Of a DNA stretch of 64,000 bases, positions 1 to 12,005 are shown one piece after another (the stretch's first letter is position 1; each line of letters opens with the position of its first letter). The DNA is taken from the NCBI GenBank assembly GCA_002718195.1, contig PBDU01000011.1, positions 219,927-283,926 on the forward strand. The letters run 5' to 3'. The position numbers were made by a program, and so were the translations under genes. The notes beneath the pieces were generated by a model that was not told the DNA's origin, ran no database searches, and saw only the letters and a list, made by a program, of their open reading frames with translations. Origin of the DNA: Methanobacteriota archaeon. Lineage in GTDB: Archaea > Thermoplasmatota > Poseidoniia > Poseidoniales > Poseidoniaceae.

Positions 1-130
1 AAATGCGCTGGATAGATTACTTGCTGACGAGGGTCAATTTATTCCTTACCAGGGGGCAGAACTTGATTATAACAACTCAACAAGCGAGTGGCACACTCTT
101 AGTGGTGAGGAAATAAACGAAGGAAGAGTT

Positions 131-904
131 TTGCCGGGGCTTCTTTCTACAACAGGCGAAATAGATATTGATCGGGTAACTGCTTTGAGAAATGTTACAG
201 AAACTGGCATACTAGAAGGACTTGCTATTCCAGAGGGAATGAATCTTCATCTAACAATAACCGTGATTGAATCAAATGATGAAAACAGGACCAATCTTGA
301 GATATTTTCAGGCGGGACTCCAAGACTAAGTGCATCATCATCAACATTTTCAATGAGAATGGTAAAATCAGGGGATGAATTAGTAAGAGTTCTTCTTGAA
401 ATCCACAATGGAGGAAAGAAAAATCCTGTGCTAGAAATTCATGAGGTGTCTCCAAGAGGAGTAAATGGAGGCCCTGAGTGGTTTGAATTATACAATCCAA
501 GTGATTTTGCTGAGGAGTTGTCCGGTTGGAGTTTTGAATCAGAGAAGAATTCGGTAACTAAATCAGTTCTTCTAACTGAGGGCGTTATGACTGGCGGCTC
601 CTATGCTGTATTCACGGGCGATCCAAACGGGCAAGATTCAGGAAATGCCTCAGAGGTCATTGACCTTGGTTCCTTAGGTTTCTTAGGAGTGGGGGCAATT
701 GATGGTTTGGCTGATGGAACCGGGAGTTTGAAAATGTATCATACCCAACAAGAAACCAATCAACCATCAAGAATTCAAACAGTCCAATGGGGCGGTGACA
801 CCGGACTGAATATAGGATTTGGAGAATCTTTGGTCTGGGATGGTAATTCTTCCTACCAATCCTCCTCTTGGACAGTGGTTGATTCGCCTACTCCGGGGAA
901 CTGA
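131..904 (+). CDS. Hypothetical protein with C-terminal lamin-tail-domain (LTD)-like motif
   Basis: ORF track (TTG start, in-frame stop just upstream). Segment WFELYNPSDFAEELSGWSF resembles the LTD signature (EFVELYNP..D..LSGW). No obvious signal peptide. Confidence 0.45.
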   Translation: MPGLLSTTGEIDIDRVTALRNVTETGILEGLAIPEGMNLHLTITVIESNDENRTNLEIFSGGTPRLSASSSTFSMRMVKSGDELVRVLLEIHNGGKKNPVLEIHEVSPRGVNGGPEWFELYNPSDFAEELSGWSFESEKNSVTKSVLLTEGVMTGGSYAVFTGDPNGQDSGNASEVIDLGSLGFLGVGAIDGLADGTGSLKMYHTQQETNQPSRIQTVQWGGDTGLNIGFGESLVWDGNSSYQSSSWTVVDSPTPGN

Positions 905-976: not shown

Positions 977-1753
977 ATGATGCCGAGTTCAGTTTATCAG
1001 CGTGACAGATGTATTACTGGTATTCACGGCATGGATGAAATCCTAAGGGGTGGTATTCCTTACGGTTCCACTGTTTTGGCAGCGGGTACTTGTGGTTCAG
1101 GAAAAACTACTCTTGGAATGGAATTTCTGGTTAGGGGTGCTTTGGCAGGTGAAGCTTGTGCACATTTTACTGCTACTGAGCCGAGTGTAAAACTTCTCGA
1201 GAATATTAGGCAATATGCGTTTTTTGACATGAACATGGTCGATACAGGATTAATCAACGTTTTCGACGTTGACGTCCTATACTCATGGCTAGGATTGGAT
1301 AAAGCCAGTTTCGATTTGGACGACGTCCACGCCCTGATCAAAGCAATTGTGGATATAGTGAACACCATTGGTGTAACTAGACTTGTAATCGATTCGGTAA
1401 CTACTCTTTGTTACAAAATTAAAAGCGAGCAATTGATTAGAGATTTCTTGTTTACATTGGGTAAGAAATTGGCTACACTCGGATGTACAACAATTTTGAT
1501 TTCTGAGATTACTTCTGCCACGGAAAACGCTCACTGGTCCTCTTTCGGTGTGGAAGAAGCGATTGCAGATGGAATCATAGTAATGGGTGACGTTGAAAGG
1601 ATGGGGCACTTACTGAGATTCTTACAAGTGGTCAAGATGAGAGGCACTGCTCATAGTAGGGCTAAACATGCAATCGAATTGACTCCGCTTGGAGTCATGC
1701 TTACTCCAATGCTGAAATGGGGTTCAGCCGGTGAGGCTAACTGGGGTGGCTGA
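977..1753 (+). CDS. KaiC-like / RadA-like RecA-superfamily ATPase (single domain)
   Basis: ITGIHGMDEILRGGIPYGSTVLAAGTCGSGKTTLGMEF matches the KaiC N-terminal pattern with an intact Walker A (GSGKT). Walker-B-like hhhhD at RLVIDSVT. Confidence 0.8.
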   Translation: MMPSSVYQRDRCITGIHGMDEILRGGIPYGSTVLAAGTCGSGKTTLGMEFLVRGALAGEACAHFTATEPSVKLLENIRQYAFFDMNMVDTGLINVFDVDVLYSWLGLDKASFDLDDVHALIKAIVDIVNTIGVTRLVIDSVTTLCYKIKSEQLIRDFLFTLGKKLATLGCTTILISEITSATENAHWSSFGVEEAIADGIIVMGDVERMGHLLRFLQVVKMRGTAHSRAKHAIELTPLGVMLTPMLKWGSAGEANWGG

Positions 1754-1755
1754 TA

Positions 1756-2340
1756 ATGTTCGAACTCGACCAAAGAATTGCCGAGCAACTTTCAGAGGTG
1801 TCATTGAATTCTGCAATTCAATTACGTTCTGGAACATCAAATTCGTTCATGGTAACTGCTAGCACTATGTTACCCTTGATGCAAATGTTCGAAATGGGTG
1901 GAGTGTACATTTCCGCATCAAGAGGAGCAGTAGAGATTATACAAGCGTTCGAATCGATTGGAGTTGATGTGTCTCATATCCAATTTATTGATTTGGTGTC
2001 CTCTGGAATACTTGGTGGAACTGATGTTCCGTATCAGAATATACACTTTGTAGATAGTCCAATTATGTTAGAGTCGATTTTGTTGAGGACATTGTATATC
2101 CTTAGAACTACGCCTACAGAAAGAAATTTCGTATTCTTGGACAGTGTAAACGCATTGAGCATTTACAACGAGGGAAGGATGTTAGCAGAATACCTGCACA
2201 CATTCATCAATACCTTTAGGCAAAGAGAGATCCTATCGGTTATTTTGAACATACCAGATCAAACCCCTCCCTTGGTTCTGTCTAATTTGGATCTATATTG
2301 TACTGACTTGATTGATAGAGGGCAGGTTGTAATTAACTGA
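1756..2340 (+). CDS. Degenerate KaiC-like RecA-fold protein (P-loop lost)
   Basis: Starts 3 nt after the preceding stop. Same domain spacing as KaiC-like proteins (VTASTMLPLMQMF...GGVYISAS...VFLDSV) but the GxxGKT position is replaced by non-canonical residues. Walker-B-like FLDS retained. Confidence 0.5.
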   Translation: MFELDQRIAEQLSEVSLNSAIQLRSGTSNSFMVTASTMLPLMQMFEMGGVYISASRGAVEIIQAFESIGVDVSHIQFIDLVSSGILGGTDVPYQNIHFVDSPIMLESILLRTLYILRTTPTERNFVFLDSVNALSIYNEGRMLAEYLHTFINTFRQREILSVILNIPDQTPPLVLSNLDLYCTDLIDRGQVVIN

Positions 2341-2350
2341 GGTGATTAAG

Positions 2351-3154
2351 ATGGCAAAAAAAGTTACTTTTAGTAAAGAGGACGAGGAATTTTTTGGTAA
2401 GAATGGCTCATTCGGAGTTCCAAAGTTCGATATGGAGATGAACGGGGGAGTTCCTCGCGGTTTCACAATTATTGCATTCACGGATACAGGTTCTGGTGCT
2501 GAATTATTTGCTAAGCAATTTACCTCGCCTGCTGAAGAGCCAGACAACACTCTCTACATATCAACAAATGAAGGGCAACAAGAAATCATTAGAATTTACG
2601 AGAAATACAGCTGGCCATTAGATATCAGCGTTAGAACAATTGGTGAAGAATACAACTCAAATGTACTTGAAAAGCAATTGTTAGCGAGTAGGTACAGGCT
2701 AGAAGGATTTAGGATTGACGATATTCAAAAATTAGCACAAACAAGATTTGTTGATGACTCTAATCAGGATTACTTGACAGAAGTAACTAATGAAGTAATG
2801 GCTCTTGACCCTTACTTTAGAGTTGTAATGGATTCATTGGATTTCTTTACTCAAAGAGAGGACCCATCAAGGGTTATCGGAATGATTAGGATGCTGCAAG
2901 CACACACCCAAATGTATCGTGGTTTGTTGTTCATCACAGTATCAAACGACGGTTTACCGCCTGCAGTAAAACAAGAATTATCGCAAATCGCAGATATGGT
3001 ACTATCATTTAAAGTTCGAACAATTGGTACTGATTTCGAAACATCGATGATAGTGTCCAAGTTTAGAAACTCCCCGGAGAACCTGAAAATTCTTGTTTTC
3101 CGTGTTACTCCGGACGAAGCGATCACTCCAGAAACGGTCGAGCGTATTGCTTGA
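2351..3154 (+). CDS. KaiC-like RecA-fold protein with degenerate Walker A (GSGAE instead of GSGKT)
   Basis: GGVPRGFTIIAFTDTGSGAELFAKQF aligns with the KaiC P-loop region but lacks Lys/Thr. RVVMDSLD Walker-B-like. ATG at 2351 preferred over the track GTG at 2342 because GGTGA lies 5 nt upstream. Confidence 0.6.
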   Translation: MAKKVTFSKEDEEFFGKNGSFGVPKFDMEMNGGVPRGFTIIAFTDTGSGAELFAKQFTSPAEEPDNTLYISTNEGQQEIIRIYEKYSWPLDISVRTIGEEYNSNVLEKQLLASRYRLEGFRIDDIQKLAQTRFVDDSNQDYLTEVTNEVMALDPYFRVVMDSLDFFTQREDPSRVIGMIRMLQAHTQMYRGLLFITVSNDGLPPAVKQELSQIADMVLSFKVRTIGTDFETSMIVSKFRNSPENLKILVFRVTPDEAITPETVERIA

Positions 3155-3202
3155 TGTTCTACGACGAGGCCAACAGAACCTCAAAAAGGAGGTTCTCGAG
3201 GG

Positions 3203-4012
3203 TTGACCATGTCCGAGGCAGGAGATGCTACTGTGATGGCTTTCCCAGGCATGGATTCGAAAGAATTGGCTGTTGAAAAAAGAAAGGATACTGGGGGGTA
3301 TGACCCATCCGGTATCGACTTAGAGGCTTGGACAGAACTCGAAGAGCAGCTGGTTGCAACAATACCAAACTATGACAGAGTAAACAAATGGATGACATTT
3401 GGACAAGACAAGAATTGGAGGAAATCGGTTGCAAAACACGCCCTAGAAGGAATGAATGTCCTTGAAGTGGGATGTGGTCCGGGCTCATTCGCAGAAACAA
3501 TCTCTGGCGTGGATTTGACCTGTCTCGATCCATCTGCTGAAATGTTGCGTGTGGCCAAGAAAAGAGTTGATGCAGTGAGGTCTGCAAACGGAGATTCAGA
3601 TGCCATTTATGTTCAAGCGATAGCAGAGGATATTCCTCTAGAAAGTGACACTTATGATAGAGTATTTTGTTTATTTTCATTCAGAGATTTTAGGGACAAA
3701 AGGAAAGGCTTAGAGGAAATACACAGGGTTTTGAAGTCAGGGGGAAAATTAGTTATTTGTGATGCAGGGAAAGCTAATGCTTTTCACGGTTTTTTCGGAA
3801 AAGTTTGGATGGCTACTGGAGTCCAGTTGATGGCTAGACTGATAACTAAGGATAAAGACCACCCTTGGAAAGGACTGGCTAGATCATACACTCATTATGG
3901 TACCAATAAATTTTACAAGAATCTAATGGAGGAAGTTGGCTTTGAGGTAAAGCAGGCTAAACTGATTCTTCCGTTCGCTATGGCCTCTAGATTTATTGCT
4001 GTAAAAAAATAG
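3203..4012 (+). CDS. Class I SAM-dependent methyltransferase, UbiE/MenG-like
   Basis: YDRVNKWMTFGQDKNWRK resembles the UbiE/COQ5 N-terminal signature (YD.MN...S.G.HR.WK). SAM motif I LEVGCGPGSF. Start is either TTG 3203 or ATG 3209, with AAAGGAGG upstream. Confidence 0.75.
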   Translation: MTMSEAGDATVMAFPGMDSKELAVEKRKDTGGYDPSGIDLEAWTELEEQLVATIPNYDRVNKWMTFGQDKNWRKSVAKHALEGMNVLEVGCGPGSFAETISGVDLTCLDPSAEMLRVAKKRVDAVRSANGDSDAIYVQAIAEDIPLESDTYDRVFCLFSFRDFRDKRKGLEEIHRVLKSGGKLVICDAGKANAFHGFFGKVWMATGVQLMARLITKDKDHPWKGLARSYTHYGTNKFYKNLMEEVGFEVKQAKLILPFAMASRFIAVKK

Positions 4013-4110: not shown

Positions 4111-4434
4111 GTGAGTCTCTTGGATTACGAATCTACGGTTAGGGGCATCAAAGAATCCGACATGAATGTCGATAAAACTCTAGCAGAGGCTCACGAAAAA
4201 GCATCTAAGCTTCTCGCTGACGCTCGAAGAGACTCTGCTAATTTAGTCTCTCAAGCAAATGAGGAATCTTCGAAGGAAGCTCTTGCCACAGTCGATTCCG
4301 CTAGGGAAGCTGCTGGTAAGGATGCAGAAAAAGCAAGAAAGGATGGTGCTTCCGCTGTTGAGAACGTTGCAAAAAGTGCAAAAGATAACAGCCAAGCAGC
4401 AATCGATCTGGTAATTAATGCAATGTTGGAATGA
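4111..4434 (+). CDS. atpH: A-type ATP synthase subunit H
   Basis: 107-aa coiled-coil, Ala/Glu/Lys-rich protein immediately upstream of atpI, as in the canonical archaeal atpHIKECFABD order. Confidence 0.6.
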   Translation: MSLLDYESTVRGIKESDMNVDKTLAEAHEKASKLLADARRDSANLVSQANEESSKEALATVDSAREAAGKDAEKARKDGASAVENVAKSAKDNSQAAIDLVINAMLE

Positions 4435-4443
4435 GGTGAATCA

Positions 4444-6501
4444 ATGTTCAGTTCTGTTCCAATGACACAAATTAACGTGGCATCTCCTGTTTCGAAACTA
4501 GATGATGTTCTCAGTGTTATGGAAAAACTTGGATGTATCCACATCCAACCTTATACTCAATTCGAAGATGGTGTGGGAATCGGGCAAGCACGCTCTGGCG
4601 AAGAGGCACAAAGAAACAGCTCTCTACTAGCAAAGGCACGTTCTCTATCTGGGCAACTCAAAGTTTCAAATGAAGGCGGCTCAATGAGCTCCTCTCAAGT
4701 TGAGAAACTACTGTCAAGCGGTTTTGAAGACTCAATGGACTCTGCTTCTTCCCTGCAAGGAGAGATACTGACACTTGAAAATGATATTAGAATTAAAACT
4801 GAAGAACTTGAAGTTCTAGAGATATTAGCTCCGCTGAATCTACCTTTAGACCTTCTTACTGGTTCTAAAAGCATGGAAGTCTATGTTGCTCAAACCAACA
4901 AATCTTCGAAAATTATGGATAAATTATCAGATTCCAAGGATGACATCATCGCCCAATATGCATCAAATGTGATTGCAATTGCCTGTTCCCCTTCCGTATC
5001 AACAGACGTGCAAGTTGTTTTGGCTGAAATGGGTGCAAGAGTGATTCAAATTCCAAGCGGAGAGGGTTCTCCAAGAAAGATATCTGCCGAGTTTTCCAAG
5101 CAATTGAGCCAATTAGAGGCAAACCTTGTATCAGCACAAGAAAAACTGGAACAATGGGCATCAACAAACGGAAGAAGCTTATTGTGTGCTGAAGAATACC
5201 TGTCAAGAAAAGTTGAGATTGATCTTGCCCCTACGAGCATAGCGGTATCCAAGAAAGCTTTTGCAATCGATGCTTGGACTCCATCAAGCAAAGCAGGTGA
5301 AGTAAAATCACAGCTTGAAAAGGTCGCTCCTTATGTTGAACTCAGCGAATATGTCGATGACCATCACCATGACGAACATCATGATGATGAGCATCATCAC
5401 GAAGCAGCAACCCCTCCTACTGAGTATGATAATCCAGGCTTTGCTAAGCCATTCGAGCTGATGGTTGACTTAGTTGGAAGACCAGCGTACGGAAAATTCG
5501 ACCCTACGCTACTGATGATGTTCACTTTCCCAATGATGTTCGGTCTAATTTTAGGTGACTTCGGATTTGGTGCAATCATTGCATTAATCGCGCTCTTCCT
5601 AAAATCAAGGGCAGTTGACCCTGCTATCAAGAATGGGATGAACATCATGCTTTGGATGGGTATCTGGTGTATGATATGGGGATTCATATTTGCCGAAGGA
5701 TTCGGTTTCGTCTGGGATAATACCACAGATTACATGACCAATTCACCACTAGCGTTCTTCTATGATATGTTGCCGAAATACGATGCAATGCCACCTTTCA
5801 TCACTGAAACTCTCGCAATGACGCACCTAGCATTGCCTTGGCACAGAGCATCAGCGGGGCACGGTCTAGAGGAATATGTACTGATTTCTGTATACCTTGG
5901 AGCAATCCACTTAATGTTAGGATTCATCATTGGATTCTTCTCTGTAATGAAAGCACACGGAATAGTTGCTGCTTTCTTCGAAAAAGGATCTTGGATACTA
6001 ATTCTAATTGGTGGATTCATGCACGCAAGAGGCAATCTAAGAGCAGAATGGGGGCTATTCGAAGGTACACCGTGGGCTATTATGCTAATCATCGGTGTAC
6101 TTTGCTTGATTGTAGGATTGGCAATATTCGAGAAATTTGGCTGGGCTGGTGGAATCATTATGGGACCAATCGAAACATTCGGTCTACTGGCTAACACATT
6201 GTCATACCTCAGGATTATGGGTGTTGGTGTTGCAGGTGTCAAAATTGCAGAGGTCTCCATCACAATGGGTTGGGTCTCAATGACCAACGGCTTTGAAGCC
6301 GGTGGAATTGGATACCTAACTGGAATCTTGTCTTTCTTACTATTCTTGGGTATCCAAGCATTCGCACTCGCTCTCGGTGTTCTTTCACCGAGCATTCACG
6401 CCGCCCGTCTGCATTTCGTGGAATGGATGGGCAAGTTCTATGACGGCTCAGGGACGGCTTTCAGGCCCCTTGGCGGCAAATCCCTCCACGTAGAGGGTTA
6501 A
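4444..6501 (+). CDS. atpI: A-type ATP synthase subunit I (a subunit)
   Basis: 685 aa. Soluble coiled-coil N-terminal half plus a polytopic C-terminal half, with the conserved Arg-containing helix region LSYLRIMGVGVAG. Operon position. Confidence 0.9.
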   Translation: MFSSVPMTQINVASPVSKLDDVLSVMEKLGCIHIQPYTQFEDGVGIGQARSGEEAQRNSSLLAKARSLSGQLKVSNEGGSMSSSQVEKLLSSGFEDSMDSASSLQGEILTLENDIRIKTEELEVLEILAPLNLPLDLLTGSKSMEVYVAQTNKSSKIMDKLSDSKDDIIAQYASNVIAIACSPSVSTDVQVVLAEMGARVIQIPSGEGSPRKISAEFSKQLSQLEANLVSAQEKLEQWASTNGRSLLCAEEYLSRKVEIDLAPTSIAVSKKAFAIDAWTPSSKAGEVKSQLEKVAPYVELSEYVDDHHHDEHHDDEHHHEAATPPTEYDNPGFAKPFELMVDLVGRPAYGKFDPTLLMMFTFPMMFGLILGDFGFGAIIALIALFLKSRAVDPAIKNGMNIMLWMGIWCMIWGFIFAEGFGFVWDNTTDYMTNSPLAFFYDMLPKYDAMPPFITETLAMTHLALPWHRASAGHGLEEYVLISVYLGAIHLMLGFIIGFFSVMKAHGIVAAFFEKGSWILILIGGFMHARGNLRAEWGLFEGTPWAIMLIIGVLCLIVGLAIFEKFGWAGGIIMGPIETFGLLANTLSYLRIMGVGVAGVKIAEVSITMGWVSMTNGFEAGGIGYLTGILSFLLFLGIQAFALALGVLSPSIHAARLHFVEWMGKFYDGSGTAFRPLGGKSLHVEG

Positions 6502-6894: not shown

Positions 6895-7458
6895 ATGTCA
6901 ATGAAGAAATTAGCAGAAGAAGTCGCTAAGGATGCCAAAGCAGAAGCAAAGCAAATAGTCGCACAAGCCAAAGAGGAAGCATCCTCCATAATGGAAAAGG
7001 CGCAAGCTGAAGCAGATGCTATCAGAGCAGGCGCTTCTGCCAAAGCAGAAAAAGAAGCAAAGCAAGTTTCCCGTGAGGTTGTTGCAAGTGCTAACCAAGC
7101 AATGCAAAAGGATATCTTAATCGCTAAGAAAGAAGCACTCGATGCTACTCTAGCAAACGCAAAAGAAATCCTAGCGGATGCAGGTTGGAAGAAGAGATCA
7201 TCTCTCCTGAAAGCACTAATGTCACAAGCAGATGAAATGAGTGATTCTTCCTTCACCGTACATCCAGTAGAAGTTGATAAAGCGGCTGTTAAGAAATTAG
7301 CAGGTGATAGAAAAGTCGGCGATACTGTAGAAGGCTTGGGTGGATTCACTCTAGTAAGTGCTGATGGAAGCGTATCTTTTGACTTCAGATTTGACAGTAA
7401 ACTAAATCAAACCTGGTCTAATAATCTAGCTGGAATAAATAAAACTCTATTTGGATGA
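6895..7458 (+). CDS. atpE: A-type ATP synthase subunit E
   Basis: 187-aa Ala/Glu/Lys-rich N-terminal coiled coil plus a globular C-terminus. Operon position between K and C. Confidence 0.85.
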   Translation: MSMKKLAEEVAKDAKAEAKQIVAQAKEEASSIMEKAQAEADAIRAGASAKAEKEAKQVSREVVASANQAMQKDILIAKKEALDATLANAKEILADAGWKKRSSLLKALMSQADEMSDSSFTVHPVEVDKAAVKKLAGDRKVGDTVEGLGGFTLVSADGSVSFDFRFDSKLNQTWSNNLAGINKTLFG

Positions 7459-7467
7459 GGTGAAAGA

Positions 7468-8514
7468 ATGGCACTGAGCAATGTTTCGTATGTTTCTGCA
7501 AGAGCAAAAACACGTCGCAAGCAACTTGCAAGCGATTCACAAATCAGAGCCCTAATCAGCCAATCCCCTGAGCAAATTTCAGTTTCTGTTGGAGATATCC
7601 ATCAAAGACTTAGGGAGGACCTTGACAGATTCGCTGGAATATACAGTGGAGGAGACTTAGTTGAAGCAGCACTTTCTCACAATTTGGAAAAAGAGCTAAA
7701 CTCAATCTTCAATCTTTGCGCTGGAAAAGTAAAGAACCATCTAAGCGTGTTTACACAAAGATATCAATACCAAAATGCAAAATCCGTATTGAGGGCAGTG
7801 TTTAACGAAGTTGATGTTGAAAAGGTAGAACATGACATCCTGCCTAACATCGACCAAATTAACGCACCTTGGTTGGATTTCGTCGAGAAATCAGAGACTT
7901 TGCGTGATGCAGTTGTTAACATGAAAAAGATGCCTTATGGAAAAGTGCTGATGTCGCTTCCAGAGGATTCAACACTAGCACAATATGAAGATGCTTTGGA
8001 CATGCACTACTATGCAATAGCCAGTTCATCAATCAAAGGTAACGGACCAGATGTAAAGATGCTTCAGGACTTAATAGCAATGGAAATTGATCACAAGAAC
8101 ATCCTGAACATCTTAGAAGCAAATGCAGTTGGTTACCAGGACAAGTTGGACCAAATTCTAATCCCTGGCGGTAAATTACTGCCAAAGCGCTCATTCCAAT
8201 CGATTATTTCTGGAAAGAGAGCGGGTATGCTTGAAGTGCTTGCGAAATCTTCTAGGTTTGACTCTGAAGGATTTGCAGAGGTTCTACAAGAGTGCGAAGA
8301 AAGCTTCAGTTTGGACCCAGCTGTTACTTGGTTGAAAGAAAGAGAATATGCACACATGAGCAGGATGAGTTACCTCCATCCTGTAAGCTCATTGCCTGTA
8401 GTACACTATGTTTCAATGAAGGTCAAAGAAATTTCAGACTTGAGGCTTGTAGTTCGTGGTAGACTCGCAGGTCTATCCTCTGAAGTACTTGAAGCACACA
8501 TATTAGGAGCGTGA
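7468..8514 (+). CDS. atpC: A-type ATP synthase subunit C (d)
   Basis: 348 aa, operon position. Size and alpha-helical composition typical of subunit C. Confidence 0.85.
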   Translation: MALSNVSYVSARAKTRRKQLASDSQIRALISQSPEQISVSVGDIHQRLREDLDRFAGIYSGGDLVEAALSHNLEKELNSIFNLCAGKVKNHLSVFTQRYQYQNAKSVLRAVFNEVDVEKVEHDILPNIDQINAPWLDFVEKSETLRDAVVNMKKMPYGKVLMSLPEDSTLAQYEDALDMHYYAIASSSIKGNGPDVKMLQDLIAMEIDHKNILNILEANAVGYQDKLDQILIPGGKLLPKRSFQSIISGKRAGMLEVLAKSSRFDSEGFAEVLQECEESFSLDPAVTWLKEREYAHMSRMSYLHPVSSLPVVHYVSMKVKEISDLRLVVRGRLAGLSSEVLEAHILGA

Positions 8515-8841: not shown

Positions 8842-10581
8842 ATGGCAAATGAAGGTAAAATCTACAGAATTTCTGGTCCGGTAGTTACGGCAATCGGAAT
8901 GGAAGCATCGATGTACGACGTTGTAAGAGTAGGTGACGAAGGTCTAATGGGCGAAGTTATCGAATTACACGGTGAGAAAGCAGTTATCCAAGTTTACGAG
9001 GATACATCAGGTATCAGACCTGGTGAACCGGTTATCAACACAAAGGAGACTCTTTCTGTTGCATTAGGTCCTGGTCTTTTAACTCAGATTTATGACGGAA
9101 TTCAGAGACCTCTACCTACTCTAGAAGCAGAGATGGGTTACTTCATCAAGCGTGGATTAGATGCTGACGCATTCGATATGGAAAAGAAGTGGACCTTCAA
9201 TCCAGTTGCATCCGCAGGTGACGCTGTTCAAGGCGGTCAAGTGATTGGAGAAGTGCAAGAGACAGAAACCATTGTTCACAAGATCATGATTCCTCCTGGT
9301 GTATCTGGAACAATCAAGTCCATTGAATCTGGAGATTTCAACGTAACAGAGAATATTGCTGTACTTGAAGACGGTACTGAGATTCAGATGCTACAAAAGT
9401 GGCCTGTTAGAACTCCACGTCCGTACACACAAAAGTACGCTCCCGACACCCCTCTAATCACAGGAATGAGAATTCTTGACTTCCTGTTCCCACTCGCAAA
9501 GGGTGGTGCAGCGGGTATCCCTGGACCATTCGGTTCTGGAAAGACTGTTACCCAACAATCTCTAGCAAAGTTTTCAGACGCTCAAATTGTTGTCTACATC
9601 GGATGTGGCGAGCGTGGAAATGAAATGACTGAAGTATTGGACGAGTTCCCTCACTTGATTGATCCAAATACCGGAAAGCCTCTGATGAACAGAACGGTCA
9701 TGATTGCAAACACATCAAACATGCCTGTAGCTGCAAGAGAAGCATCTGTGTACACTGGAATTACTATTGCAGAATACTTCCGTGACATGGGTTACGATGT
9801 TGCATTGATGGCAGACTCAACCTCAAGATGGGCTGAAGCAATGAGAGAAATTTCCTCAAGGCTTGAAGAAATGCCTGGTGAAGAAGGATATCCTGCTTAC
9901 CTTTCAAGCAGAATTGCCGAATTCTATGAGCGTGCAGGACGTGTAAACTCTCTAGGTGGAGATGACGGGTCTGTTACAGTTATCGGAGCGGTATCACCTC
10001 CTGGTGGTGACATCTCTGAACCTGTCAGCCAAGGTACTCTGAGAATTGTTAAGGTTTTCTGGGGTCTTGATGCTGGTCTGGCAAGACAAAGACACTTCCC
10101 TGCTATCAACTGGTTGAACTCATACTCTCTATACCCGCCTTCTTTGAACCAGTGGTACAGAGACAATATTGCACAGGATTTCCCTGAGATTAGAACTGAA
10201 ATTTCTACTCTATTACAGATTGAGTCCGAACTTCAAGAAATCGTACAATTAGTCGGTTCAGATGCTCTACCGGTCGACCAACAACTAACTCTAGAAGTTG
10301 CTAGAATGATCAGAGAATATTTCCTACAACAAAACGGATTCCACGATGTTGATGCATCCTGTGAAATAAATTTGGTCTACAAGATGGCTAAGGCTATCCT
10401 AACCTTCCAAACAGCAGCAAAGGCTGCTATGGCTGCAGGTGCTCAATTAGAAGACATCACTGGTGTACCATCAAGGTCTACCTTGATGAGAGGAAAATTC
10501 GAAGCATCATATGTTGACGATATCGAAGAAATGGTTGCTACCATGGTTAAAGAAATCGAAGCGACCGTGGAGGACAACTGA
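8842..10581 (+). CDS. atpA: A-type ATP synthase catalytic subunit A
   Basis: P-loop GPFGSGKT. Non-homologous-region insertion typical of A/V-type A subunits. ATG at 8842 preceded by AAGGAGG; the track start at 8809 is an upstream alternative start. Confidence 0.95.
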
Positions 10582-10594
10582 AGGAGGAATAATC

Positions 10595-11974
10595 ATGGCA
10601 GGAAAAGAATACAGAACAATCACAGACGTAAAGGGACCACTAGTATTCCTTGAAAAGACTGAGCCAGTAGCGTTCGGAGAAATTGTAACTCTAAAACTAA
10701 GCAATGGTACAATCAAGAATGGACAAGTTCTTGACACATCCGATGATTTAGTGGTGGTACAAGTTTTCGAAGGGACTGCTAAGGTGGACAGAAACACTGG
10801 TGTTACTTTCATGGGAGATGTTTTCAAATTACCAGTTTCAACCGACTTAGTTGGAAGAATTTTGGACGGAGCAGGAAGACCAAGAGATGGTGGACCAGAA
10901 ATCGTAGCAGAAGAGAAAGCTGACATTATCGGTGAAGCGATCAACCCGTTCTCAAGAAAGAGTCCACACGACTTTATCCAAACAGGTATCTCAGCAATTG
11001 ACTGCTGTACTACTCTTGTTCGTGGACAGAAGCTACCTATCTTCTCAGCATCAGGTCTACCTCACAACGACATTGCTCTACAAATTGCAAGACAAGCAAA
11101 ACTGAAGGATTCAGATGAAGAGTTTATTGTTGTATTCTGTGCAATGGGAATCACTGCTGAAGAATACAACTACTTCAGGTCTGACTTGGAGAGAACCGGT
11201 GCTCTAGAAAATGCGGTACTATTCGTAAATCTTGCTGATGACCCTGCTGTCGAGAGAATCATTACTCCAAGACTAGCATTGACTGCAGCAGAATACCTTG
11301 CTTTCGAGAAGGATTACCACGTACTTGTTATCTATACTGACATGACAAACTACTGTGATGCATTGAGACAAATCGGTGCTGCTAGAGAAGAGGTTCCAGG
11401 AAGACGTGGATACCCAGGTTACATGTATACTGACTTGGCTATGCTTTACGAGCGTGCTGGAATTATCAAAGGAAAGAAAGGTTCAATCACTCAATTCCCA
11501 ATTTTGACAATGCCTGGTGACGATATTACTCACCCAATTCCTGACTTGTCAGGATATATTACAGAAGGTCAGATTGTTATCAGTCGTGAGTTATACCAGC
11601 AAGGAATTTATCCGCCGATCAACGTTTTGCCTTCATTGAGCAGATTGATGGGTTCCTGTATTGGTGCTAAAACAACTCGTGAGGACCACAAATCCGTATC
11701 TGACCAAATGTATGCTGCATACGCTCAAGGAAGAGAACTAAGAGGACTTGTAGCGATTGTTGGTGAAGATGCACTAAACGAGCGTGACAAGCAACTTTTG
11801 GACTTCTCCGGAGTCTTTGAGGATAAATTCTTGAGACAAGGACAAGATGAAGACAGGTCCATTGATGACACTCTCGACCTATGTTGGGATTTGATGTCAA
11901 GCATCTCTACCAAGTACTTGGTAAGACTTGACCAAAAGTGGATTGAAAAGTACCACCCAGACAACAGGGCTTGA
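10595..11974 (+). CDS. atpB: A-type ATP synthase subunit B
   Basis: [18 protein letters not shown]..., homologous to A/V-type B subunits. ATG 10595 preceded by AGGAGG. The track ORF begins inside atpA. Confidence 0.95.
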
Positions 11975-12005
11975 TTTCAAGGAGTAAAAGCGGGAGGAAT
12001 ATGAA

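Follow-up and report, generated by a model that had tools for sequence, protein, structure and literature searches.

This study concerns three adjacent genes, here called g1, g2 and g3, that lie near the start of a stretch of 64,000 nucleotides (nt) from a member of the Poseidoniaceae (Marine Group II a), namely positions 219,927 to 283,926 of contig PBDU01000011.1 in GenBank assembly GCA_002718195.1; this whole stretch is referred to as the window. The trio and the methyltransferase gene that follows it are co-directional, and the spacers within the trio are only 2 nt (g1/g2) and 10 nt (g2/g3) long. Upstream of g1 lies the 3’ part of a gene for a Lamin-Tail-Domain (LTD) protein, whose frame has no stop codon in positions 2-130, so that the gene leaves the window at its 5’ end. 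A preliminary description of this DNA, based on its letters and a list of its open reading frames (ORFs), had read the trio as one catalytic and two degenerate KaiC-like paralogues, and the profile searches and structural models reported here agree with that reading. We consider it highly probable that the locus encodes a conserved module in which a KaiC-family ATPase is combined with inactivated KaiC-fold proteins. These are real genes and not chance ORFs, because the exact proteins are found in public collections and the trio is retained in all of the 80 species loci discussed below; proteins identical to g1 and g2 of the window are also encoded on a GTDB contig of an uncultured Poseidoniales archaeon. 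As for the start of g3, the ORF list gives a GTG codon at position 2342, and the public proteins use an ATG at 2351, behind a Shine-Dalgarno-like GGTGA site.

Sequence and structural analysis of the three proteins

The KaiC signature of g1 is strong, with a score of 175.9 bits for the Pfam KaiC model PF06745 (COG0467, ‘RAD55’), above the gathering score of 26.6. When the profile of the g1 orthologues was compared with solved structures, KaiC was matched at an E-value of 4e-74, PH0186 at 5e-50 and PH0284 at 2e-44, while FlaH reached just 3e-7 and RadA, RAD51C and XRCC3 about 1e-6. In HMMER alignments with a solved KaiC chain, g1 scored 96 bits with the CI half and 44 bits with the CII half, and the KaiC phosphosites S431 and T432 aligned with E194 and A195 of g1; because of the better match to CI and the lack of equivalents of S431 and T432, we assign g1 as a CI-type domain and not as a CII-type autokinase. 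Ten orthologues, down to 40% identity, share residues G37, G40, G42, K43, T44, E68, D139 and K220 without exception, and at position 222 they have either R or K. The alignments thus show g1 to be, by prediction, a complete CI-type KaiC ATPase endowed with both Walker motifs (A and B), the catalytic Glu and the Lys/Arg finger. The protein is publicly named ‘circadian clock protein KaiC’; it consists, however, of one domain of 258 amino acids (aa), compared with the two tandem domains and about 500 aa of bona fide KaiC, and its scores with the bona fide KaiC models TIGR02655 and NF006799 (98.3 and 128.4 bits) are below the cut-offs of 546 and 408, respectively. RadB models (21.6 and 19.5 bits; cut-offs 278 and 172) and RadA models (12-15 bits; cut-offs 259-361) also scored below their cut-offs, and no KaiB-like (thioredoxin-fold) gene was found adjacent to the trio in the window or in the related loci annotated with Pfam.

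The third protein of the trio also scores above the Pfam KaiC gathering score (51.6 bits), and hhalign relates it to g1 with a probability of 97.8% (E 1e-12). Its Walker A motif reads GSGAE (residues 47-51), and across orthologues A, S, M, L or T stands in place of the Walker Lys, which persists as K in one lineage only, and E, D, Q or G in place of the Thr. In spite of these replacements, G47, G49, K55, Q56 and F57 (the last three within a conserved FAKQF), R157 and D161 are invariant, and T72 and E74 are kept besides the Walker B residue D161. A Lys at position 237, which corresponds to K220 of g1, is found in at least 90% of the sequences; R239 varies among R, K and T. The AlphaFold2 model of g3 (predicted local distance difference test, pLDDT, 86.4) matched KaiC, PH0186, FlaH and SSO2452 in Foldseek searches with E-values of about 1e-13 and target-normalised template modelling (TM) scores of 0.72-0.77. 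The alignments and the model show g3 as a putative full-length KaiC fold in which the Walker A Lys and Thr have been lost and the glycine loop, Glu74 and the Lys at the finger position are conserved. Public databases name it ‘RAD55 family ATPase’; its DUF7125 score of 18.9 bits is below the cut-off of 29.1, yet nearly all orthologues of g3 carry DUF7125 in the precomputed Pfam annotation.

In g2 no GxxxxGK[ST] motif is present, the strand that would carry the catalytic Glu (..TE..) is replaced by VYISASRG, and the protein ends directly after the strand matching ADGII of g1, so that the C-terminal Lys/Arg hairpin is missing. Its own Pfam KaiC score (21.9 bits, E 1.3e-4) is below the gathering score; KaiC matches were obtained, however, for all 20 sampled members of the g2 family, the best with an E-value of 3.7e-10. 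Because the sequence signal of g2 itself is weak, its fold was modelled. The AlphaFold2 model, computed from an alignment with distant homologues, has a pLDDT of 89.7 and a predicted TM score of 0.88, and the solved structures that it matched best in Foldseek were PH0284 (PDB 2dr3; E 1e-7, TM score 0.70), the CI domain of KaiC, PH0186, FlaH and RecA. Membership of g2 in the KaiC family therefore rests on the modelled fold and on family-level evidence and not on its own Pfam score. The model shows what appears to be a shortened KaiC core that, of the nucleotide-handling elements, keeps the Walker B Asp only. The residues invariant in the g2 family are Y51, F77, D79, P102, D129, S130 and N138. 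An exhaustive search with g2 yielded 520 representative clusters at E-values of 1e-3 or less, and when the alignment of the g2 family was used as the query, most matches were again to the same close relatives from Marine Group II. With DUF7090, g2 scores 14.7 bits against a cut-off of 27; DUF7504 or DUF7090 was matched by 14-15 of the 20 sampled family members, and DUF835 was also among the family matches.

We also observed that g2-like domains devoid of a P-loop occur as the C-terminal cytoplasmic module of receptor-type proteins (P0267, P0222, P0246, P0208 and P0178), with architectures that include dCache_1-HAMP-iKaiC, extracellular sensor-transmembrane segment-iKaiC-DUF835, and TPR-iKaiC, where iKaiC stands for an inactivated KaiC domain.

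The motifs of an active P-loop ATPase are therefore complete in g1 alone, g2 having only D129 and g3 having both the Lys and the Thr replaced (Table 1). ORFs and motifs are as first described, including GTCGSGKTT in g1, the missing P-loop of g2, GSGAE in g3, and a Walker-B-like hhhhDS strand in all three proteins. The preliminary description had made its reading depend on genes 2 and 3 having a RecA/KaiC fold and on the trio being kept as a unit in relatives. The former is confirmed by Pfam, hhalign, AlphaFold2 and Foldseek, and the latter holds well beyond close relatives, as described in the next section.

Table 1. Positions of the genes and motifs at the trio locus, in window coordinates.
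Feature	Position	Strand	Basis
LTD gene, 3’ part	2-904	+	Pfam LTD, 34.7 bits; open to the 5’ end of the window
g1, predicted single-domain KaiC CI-type ATPase, 258 aa	977-1753	+	Pfam KaiC
g1 Walker A GTCGSGKTT, residues 37-45	1085-1111	+	Motif and orthologue alignment
g1 Walker B strand RLVIDS, residues 135-140	1379-1396	+	Motif and orthologue alignment
g1 KMRGTAHSR, residues 220-228, equivalent of the KaiC Lys/Arg finger hairpin	1634-1660	+	Alignment to KaiC CI KFRGTSH
g2, putative truncated KaiC-fold pseudo-ATPase, 194 aa	1756-2340	+	AlphaFold2 and Foldseek
g2 signature (D/E)SPxMLE, residues 100-107	2053-2076	+	Family alignment
g2 Walker-B-like strand FVFLDS, residues 125-130	2128-2145	+	Family alignment
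g3, putative full-length KaiC-fold protein, degenerate Walker A, 267 aa	2351-3154	+	Pfam KaiC, AlphaFold2
g3 degenerate P-loop DTGSGAELFAKQF, residues 45-57	2483-2521	+	Orthologue alignments
g3 Walker B strand RVVMDS, residues 157-162	2819-2836	+	Orthologue alignments
g3 SKFRNSPEN, residues 236-244, position of g1 KMRGT	3056-3082	+	hhalign
UbiE/MenG-like class I S-adenosylmethionine methyltransferase	3209-4012 (alternative start 3203)	+	Pfam Ubie_methyltran

Conservation, gene order and selection

Our Poseidoniaceae sample comprised 80 species-level genomes, in which gene order was scored wherever the contig reached far enough. The order LTD-g1-g2-g3 is kept in 80 of 80 Poseidoniaceae loci where the contig allows, and in one genome of the Thalassarchaeaceae (Marine Group II b), which carries it without the methyltransferase or the ATPase operon nearby. 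Identity to the window proteins across the 80 Poseidoniaceae is 88-96% for g1, 84-90% for g2 and 63-82% for g3, and among neighbouring proteins it is 35-60% for AtpI, about 50% for AtpE and about 40% for the LTD protein. As synonymous sites are saturated between species, the nonsynonymous substitution rate (dN) alone was usable, with no dN/dS ratio; dN was 0.056 for g1, 0.117 for g2 and 0.207 for g3, compared to 0.443 for atpI and 0.465 for atpE. Because their dN is lower than that of atpI and atpE, g2 and g3 are under strong purifying selection, stronger than that acting on several adjacent subunits of the A-type ATP synthase (A-ATPase), and are not decaying; g1 is likewise under strong purifying selection.

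Outside Marine Group II, orthologues with 27-36% identity to g2 are flanked by g1 and g3 in loci L086 (from a Thermoplasmata archaeon), L090, L091, L092 and L081, and in the distant orthologues of L081, L084-L086 and L089-L091 the reading frames overlap by 1-8 nt at most junctions. The Methanomassiliicoccales and some other lineages have g1-g2 only. A scan of metagenomes with an alignment of g2 proteins from outside Marine Group II, in which (D/E)SPxMLE served as the search pattern, added 80 further loci. Adjacency was then counted by six-frame searches with hidden Markov models (HMMs) on 78 non-redundant loci from outside Marine Group II: in 56 of 57 testable loci g1 immediately precedes g2, and in 34 of 64 g3 immediately follows it. 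On the strength of these counts, the core of the module is g1-g2, and g3 is a frequent third member. We conclude that g1-g2-g3 is a conserved and probably co-translated module across the Thermoplasmatota. The trio of locus L081 contains an additional gene between g2 and g3 (1444-2556, + strand), which encodes a 370-aa protein with two repeats, conserved Cys motifs and a Pfam ATC_hydrolase score of 34.6 bits, and which may provide a ligand-binding input.

Pilin genes and other neighbours of the module

In 56 of the 63 testable loci from outside Marine Group II, one to three pilin genes are found within 500 nt downstream of the module and on the same strand, with a median gap of 200 nt. These downstream pilins score 29-40 bits with Pfam Pilin_N (gathering score 25.2) and 41 bits with TIGR02537 (cut-off 20), and the small class III signal-peptide genes that follow the module are, as judged from these profiles, bona fide archaeal type IV pilins. 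Both duos of the Methanomassiliicoccales kind and a separate trio lineage are covered by this pattern. The pilin genes beside orthologous modules are the strongest functional clue that we have; they lie outside the window and escaped the preliminary description.

In Marine Group II, the constant neighbour is the LTD gene, which is located 60-100 nt upstream of g1 and on the same strand in every Poseidoniaceae locus with upstream DNA as well as in the Thalassarchaeaceae. The full-length LTD orthologues (L001 4067-5149 and L082 4089-5165) carry a near-invariant N-terminal hydrophobic segment, DExG/A-LTAVIEFLSAFTLFLMIL (also written …DExG/A-LTAVIEFLSAFTLFLMILTAF…), and outside this N-terminal segment the LTD protein is just about 40% conserved. 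Judged by eye, it is similar to signals of the class III or TadE-like type. The membrane-anchored LTD protein is the conserved fourth neighbour of the trio in the Poseidoniales, and its membership in the unit is tentative. The idea that it is a recognisable pilin was rejected, as no pilin profile matched it, and what remains is a hint at the level of the motif.

Several side observations concern the surroundings of the orthologous modules. In Thalassarchaeaceae loci L082 and L083, and therefore in one lineage, a gene for a prepilin peptidase of the FlaK/PibD type follows g3 directly (7429-8436, - strand; Pfam Arc_PepC_II, 33.8 bits). Ten long ORFs downstream of the module in ten related loci were inspected, and their products include AglB/STT3 in three loci, besides a protein of ribosome biogenesis and one that is TnpB-like. 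The AglB/STT3 genes are located 2.7-3.5 kb past duo-linked pilins (L137 9312-12552, L148 3564-6828 and L164 7580-10052), and their proximity may fit N-glycosylated pilins, or it may be plain synteny. The TnpB/Cas12f1-like protein, which contains a TNB domain, is encoded about 3 kb past the trio-pilin block of one soil or sediment lineage (L112 10271-11545). In locus L090, the trio-pilin block is followed by genes for eIF-5A and arginase (9274-10760). In Aciduliprofundum MAR08-339, the same two genes stand immediately before the type IV pilus machinery of clade 2, pilin-FlaI-TadC-TadC-FlaI (PMC4858521, Table S4), and this context may be what is left of a former synteny of the module with a pilus locus.

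The methyltransferase and the rest of the window

The product of the gene downstream of g3 is, by its profile scores, a UbiE-like methyltransferase: its Pfam Ubie_methyltran score of 92.9 bits is above the cut-off of 20.1, and its TIGR01934 score of 118.3 bits is below the subfamily cut-off of 158. The gene begins 54 nt after g3 on the same strand, and does likewise in most Poseidoniaceae loci. In about 10 Poseidoniaceae species, however, it is inverted and 0.8-3.5 kb away (loci L055, L057, L059, L062, L065, L072, L076 and L079), and in locus L077 the sole methyltransferase match is about 4.4 kb upstream of g1. No methyltransferase was found at the locus in the Thalassarchaeaceae or in any of the other lineages examined. 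With 65-72% identity, the protein is less conserved than the trio, and in relatives its gene accompanies the start of the A-ATPase operon and not the trio. The preliminary description had included the methyltransferase in the arrangement, and this part of it has to be given up, as synteny across relatives rules out the gene as an operon member.

The A-type ATP synthase operon begins at position 4111, downstream of the methyltransferase gene, and we infer that both are unrelated neighbours of the trio. Within this operon, atpI (4444-6501) encodes a His/Asp/Glu-rich insert, DDHHHDEHHDDEHHHE (aa 305-320, window positions 5356-5403), just before the membrane domain of the protein, and this insert might bind metal. 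The remainder of the window, from position 12000 to 64000, is made up of housekeeping genes that encode the A, B and D subunits of the A-ATPase, gyrase A and B, an SMC-like protein and HMG-CoA reductase, and it also holds genes for diphthamide synthase and for a giant PKD-domain protein. Its strong Pfam hits include neither type IV pilus nor archaellum machinery.

Discussion

The explanation that we favor is that the trio encodes a mixed KaiC switch module tied to pilus-like structures. According to this model, g1, g2 and g3 would assemble into a heteromeric RecA-type ring or stack, within which g1 alone would bind and hydrolyse ATP. The active site of g1 might be completed in trans by g3, through the retained Lys at the finger position, the Glu of the catalytic strand and the glycine loop, and g2 would provide a scaffold or adaptor surface. 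Such a complex would act as a nucleotide-dependent switch and not as a substrate-processing enzyme, and its ATP state would steer a partner from the type IV pilus/archaellum world. Its output would be the control of assembly or expression of surface filaments that resemble type IV pili or archaella, as modelled by ArlH acting on ArlI and by CirA in Haloferax. We propose an output of this kind because pilins follow the orthologous modules within about 200 nt and because the Marine Group II copy is located behind a membrane-anchored LTD protein; the occurrence of g2-like domains in receptor-type proteins lends a second line of support to a signalling role. Taken as a whole, this explanation seems to us as apt to be wrong as right. 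We lean slightly toward accepting a hetero-oligomer of the three proteins, which is suggested by the fixed gene order, the overlapping or nearly overlapping frames and the complementary retention of motifs; a hetero-oligomeric ring or regulatory module had been suggested in the preliminary description, and we too find this the most reasonable reading. An output to pili or archaella in Marine Group II itself is conceivable, but the balance of our evidence tips somewhat away from it. A bolder version of the model, in which the three proteins form an obligate 2:2:2 heterohexameric KaiC-type ring whose active sites are all of one kind, and in which this ring, as a master switch throughout the phylum, would read either the membrane pool of type IV pilin-like proteins or the energy or diel state of the cell and set surface-filament and adhesion behaviour, appears rather improbable.

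We acknowledge that several of our results weigh against a mixed switch tied to pili. At the level of the proteins, the similarity of g2 to its two partners is weak, with hhalign probabilities of 58% (E 1e-4) to g1 and 15% (E 0.0018) to g3. At the level of the module, an adjacent g3 is absent in about half of the lineages outside Marine Group II, so that a strict three-subunit complex is not universal. As for the link to pilins, the 80 metagenome loci with linked pilins are all related to a single query (48-99% identity) and the counts obtained from them are not independent, and five trio loci (L086, L091, L117, L150 and L155) have no pilin nearby. An HMM of the pilin N-terminus, built from four pilins, matched nothing in the window, nor at a single Marine Group II locus, and the N-termini of the LTD proteins matched none of the Pfam and NCBIfam pilin models at E-values of 10 or less. 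Because no pilin is adjacent to the module in Marine Group II and the N-terminus of the LTD protein goes unrecognised by these models, the link of the window to pili is indirect; what is left of it in Marine Group II is the motif-level similarity of the LTD segment and the FlaK-like peptidase beside the trio in one Thalassarchaeaceae lineage. Furthermore, no type IV pilus ATPase or platform protein was among the best 25 of the 63 Pfam families in the 64-kb window, and neither a type IV pilus ATPase nor TadC was encoded by the ten long ORFs downstream of the module in ten related loci.

A different role, which we deem unlikely albeit worth serious consideration, would be that of a general KaiC signalling or timing hub, a diel or energy-state timer in which g2 and g3 would be KaiB/KaiA-like partners and pilins would be either one output or a coincidence. 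The similarity of g1, which is closest to KaiC CI and bears the public name of a clock protein, is in keeping with such a role, and so are the unusual conservation of the trio in the Poseidoniales, which are light-driven heterotrophs, the many receptor architectures that contain g2-like domains, and the window itself, in which no pilin or type IV pilus machinery adjoins the trio (pilus families having been sought among the best 25 of 63). KaiC ATPases were reportedly proposed as general archaeal signalling hubs by Makarova et al. in 2017. A timer of this kind is difficult to reconcile, however, with the single domain of g1, its scores of 98-128 bits where bona fide KaiC would exceed 546 and 408, its lack of the S431/T432 phosphosites, and the absence of an adjacent KaiB-like gene, and the adjacency to pilins is very consistent where present.

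Much less credible is a function in DNA repair, with the trio as a recombination mediator made of RadA paralogues of the Rad55/57 or aRadC kind. The public name of g3 and the presence of SSO2452, a Sulfolobus RadA paralogue, among the structural matches could be cited in favor of it, and eukaryotic Rad51-paralogue complexes also include degenerate ATPases. The profile of g1, however, prefers KaiC (4e-74) to RadA, RAD51C and XRCC3 (about 1e-6) by a wide distance, and RadB models, whose cut-offs are 172-278, score about 20 bits; moreover, genes for DNA repair are not among the conserved neighbours, which are pilins or the membrane LTD protein. We give slightly less credit still to a four-gene operon in which the UbiE-like methyltransferase would work with the trio, as the short same-strand spacing seen in the window and most Poseidoniaceae loci has to be set against a gene that has moved or been inverted in about 10 species, is absent elsewhere and is less conserved than the trio.

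We would be surprised, too, if the trio proved to be an archaeal counterpart of the Elp4-Elp5-Elp6 ring that aids Elp3 in the modification of tRNA wobble uridines, with the methyltransferase in a Trm9-like role. The architecture is analogous, with three paralogues that are mostly degenerate, and the idea was prompted by weak profile matches, namely to Elong_Iki1 (Elp5) in 3 of the 20 sampled g2-family members (best E 1e-4) and, faintly, to PAXNEB (Elp4) in g1 and g3 orthologues. The window g2, however, has no Iki1 match, and the window proteins match no Elp family in Pfam; Elp subunits were absent both from the 50 best Foldseek matches of either g2 or g3 and from the results of profile searches against solved structures; and the methyltransferase is not retained together with the trio, nor was an Elp3-like radical-SAM/GNAT gene seen near the trio in the loci examined. 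Homology to Elp456 was ruled out on the basis of the Foldseek results, the profile searches against the PDB and the synteny of the methyltransferase. Lastly, the notion that g2 and g3 are functionless, decaying duplicates of g1, for which the loss of catalytic motifs would speak, can be dismissed, given their high identity over 80 species in spite of saturated synonymous sites, a dN below that of A-ATPase subunits I and E, invariant motifs of their own, orthologues at 27-36% identity in other orders, and confident folded models for both.

If we return to the mixed switch module, several of its features have precedents. Inactivated KaiC domains are a named concept, ‘iKaiC’, in the passages of PMC5847659 that cite Makarova et al. 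2017 for it, and Makarova, Koonin & Albers 2016 (PMC4858521) state that type IV pilus loci have a strong association with KaiC-family ATPases, and inactivated RAD55 genes are found next to such loci as well. The inactivated families include arCOG01175 (‘RAD55, inactivated’) and arCOG03793 (‘inactivated KaiC-like, DUF835 family’). Those loci likewise combine Walker-less RecA/KaiC proteins with active KaiC-family ATPases and pilus components, and a signalling or regulatory role was predicted for them. The trio differs from these in that an active paralogue and two inactive ones of different kinds keep the same order from the Poseidoniales to the Thermoplasmata, and in being linked, as a module, to stand-alone pilins and not to FlaI/TadC machinery. 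The preliminary description did not recognise the arrangement as a described system. This went too far, as iKaiC domains and the links between KaiC and pilus loci have been published (PMC5847659; PMC4858521). Leaving Makarova et al. 2017 aside, we have not found a description of a phylum-wide set in which an active paralogue and two distinct inactive ones keep a constant order, with a linkage to stand-alone pilins and exceptional conservation in the Poseidoniales.

Comparisons with individual proteins lead to a similar picture. ArlH (FlaH; arCOG04148) is also a single-domain KaiC fold that serves a filament derived from type IV pili, and its structures rank with the best that g2 and g3 matched; it acts by nucleotide-dependent oligomerisation and by binding the ArlI ATPase. 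With the ArlH model NF052589, however, g1 and g3 score 34.9 and 47.8 bits and g2 has no match, at a cut-off of 215. Furthermore, ArlH is one gene with an intact Walker A and not three paralogues of which two lack it, and the trio is not part of an arl operon but has the LTD protein, the methyltransferase and the A-ATPase operon as its neighbours. That a KaiC-like protein can be functionally linked to pilins has a precedent in the single-domain KaiC-like ATPase CirA of Haloferax volcanii, whose loss, or the mutation of its Walker A, alters archaellum expression that responds to type IV pilins (PMC10983859). CirA, however, is one protein inside the arl cluster, and no degenerate partner paralogues of it have been described. 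PH0284 and PH0186 of Pyrococcus horikoshii (PDB 2dr3 and 2zts) include the best structural match of g2 and are strong sequence matches of g1. Single-domain archaeal KaiC homologues such as these form rings, and PH0284 was deposited with six chains; they differ from the trio in that each has one kind of subunit with an intact P-loop. Elp4-Elp5-Elp6 and the Rad51-paralogue complexes share with the proposed complex a heteromeric set of RecA-fold paralogues, most of them catalytically degenerate, but this is an analogy of architecture only, as neither has a specific sequence or structural affinity to the trio and their genomic context is different. Overall, the trio gives the impression of a complex for signalling or of an accessory one, whose general kind is known, and not of a new kind of system, and the names ‘circadian clock protein KaiC’, ‘FlaH’ and ‘RAD55 family ATPase’ are family-level labels that do not carry membership in the specific families.

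An archaellum operon is present in all Poseidoniaceae and is thought to serve adhesion (PMC6461757). The trio described here is among the slowest-evolving gene sets of Marine Group II outside the core machinery, slower than several subunits of the ATP synthase. The members of Marine Group II, which have not been cultured, rank with the most abundant archaea of surface seawater, and to our knowledge it is not known how they regulate attachment to particles. If the phylum-wide master switch were true, it would act in those archaea that are most abundant in the plankton of the surface ocean, and an obligate 2:2:2 ring would be the first prokaryotic RecA-fold ring made of one catalytic and two distinct pseudo-ATPase paralogues. 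Inactivated KaiC domains are common in archaeal genomes, and their role as signalling adaptors has so far been a proposal; if the mixed ring were true, the trio would offer a simple, testable model of how such domains work with an active partner.

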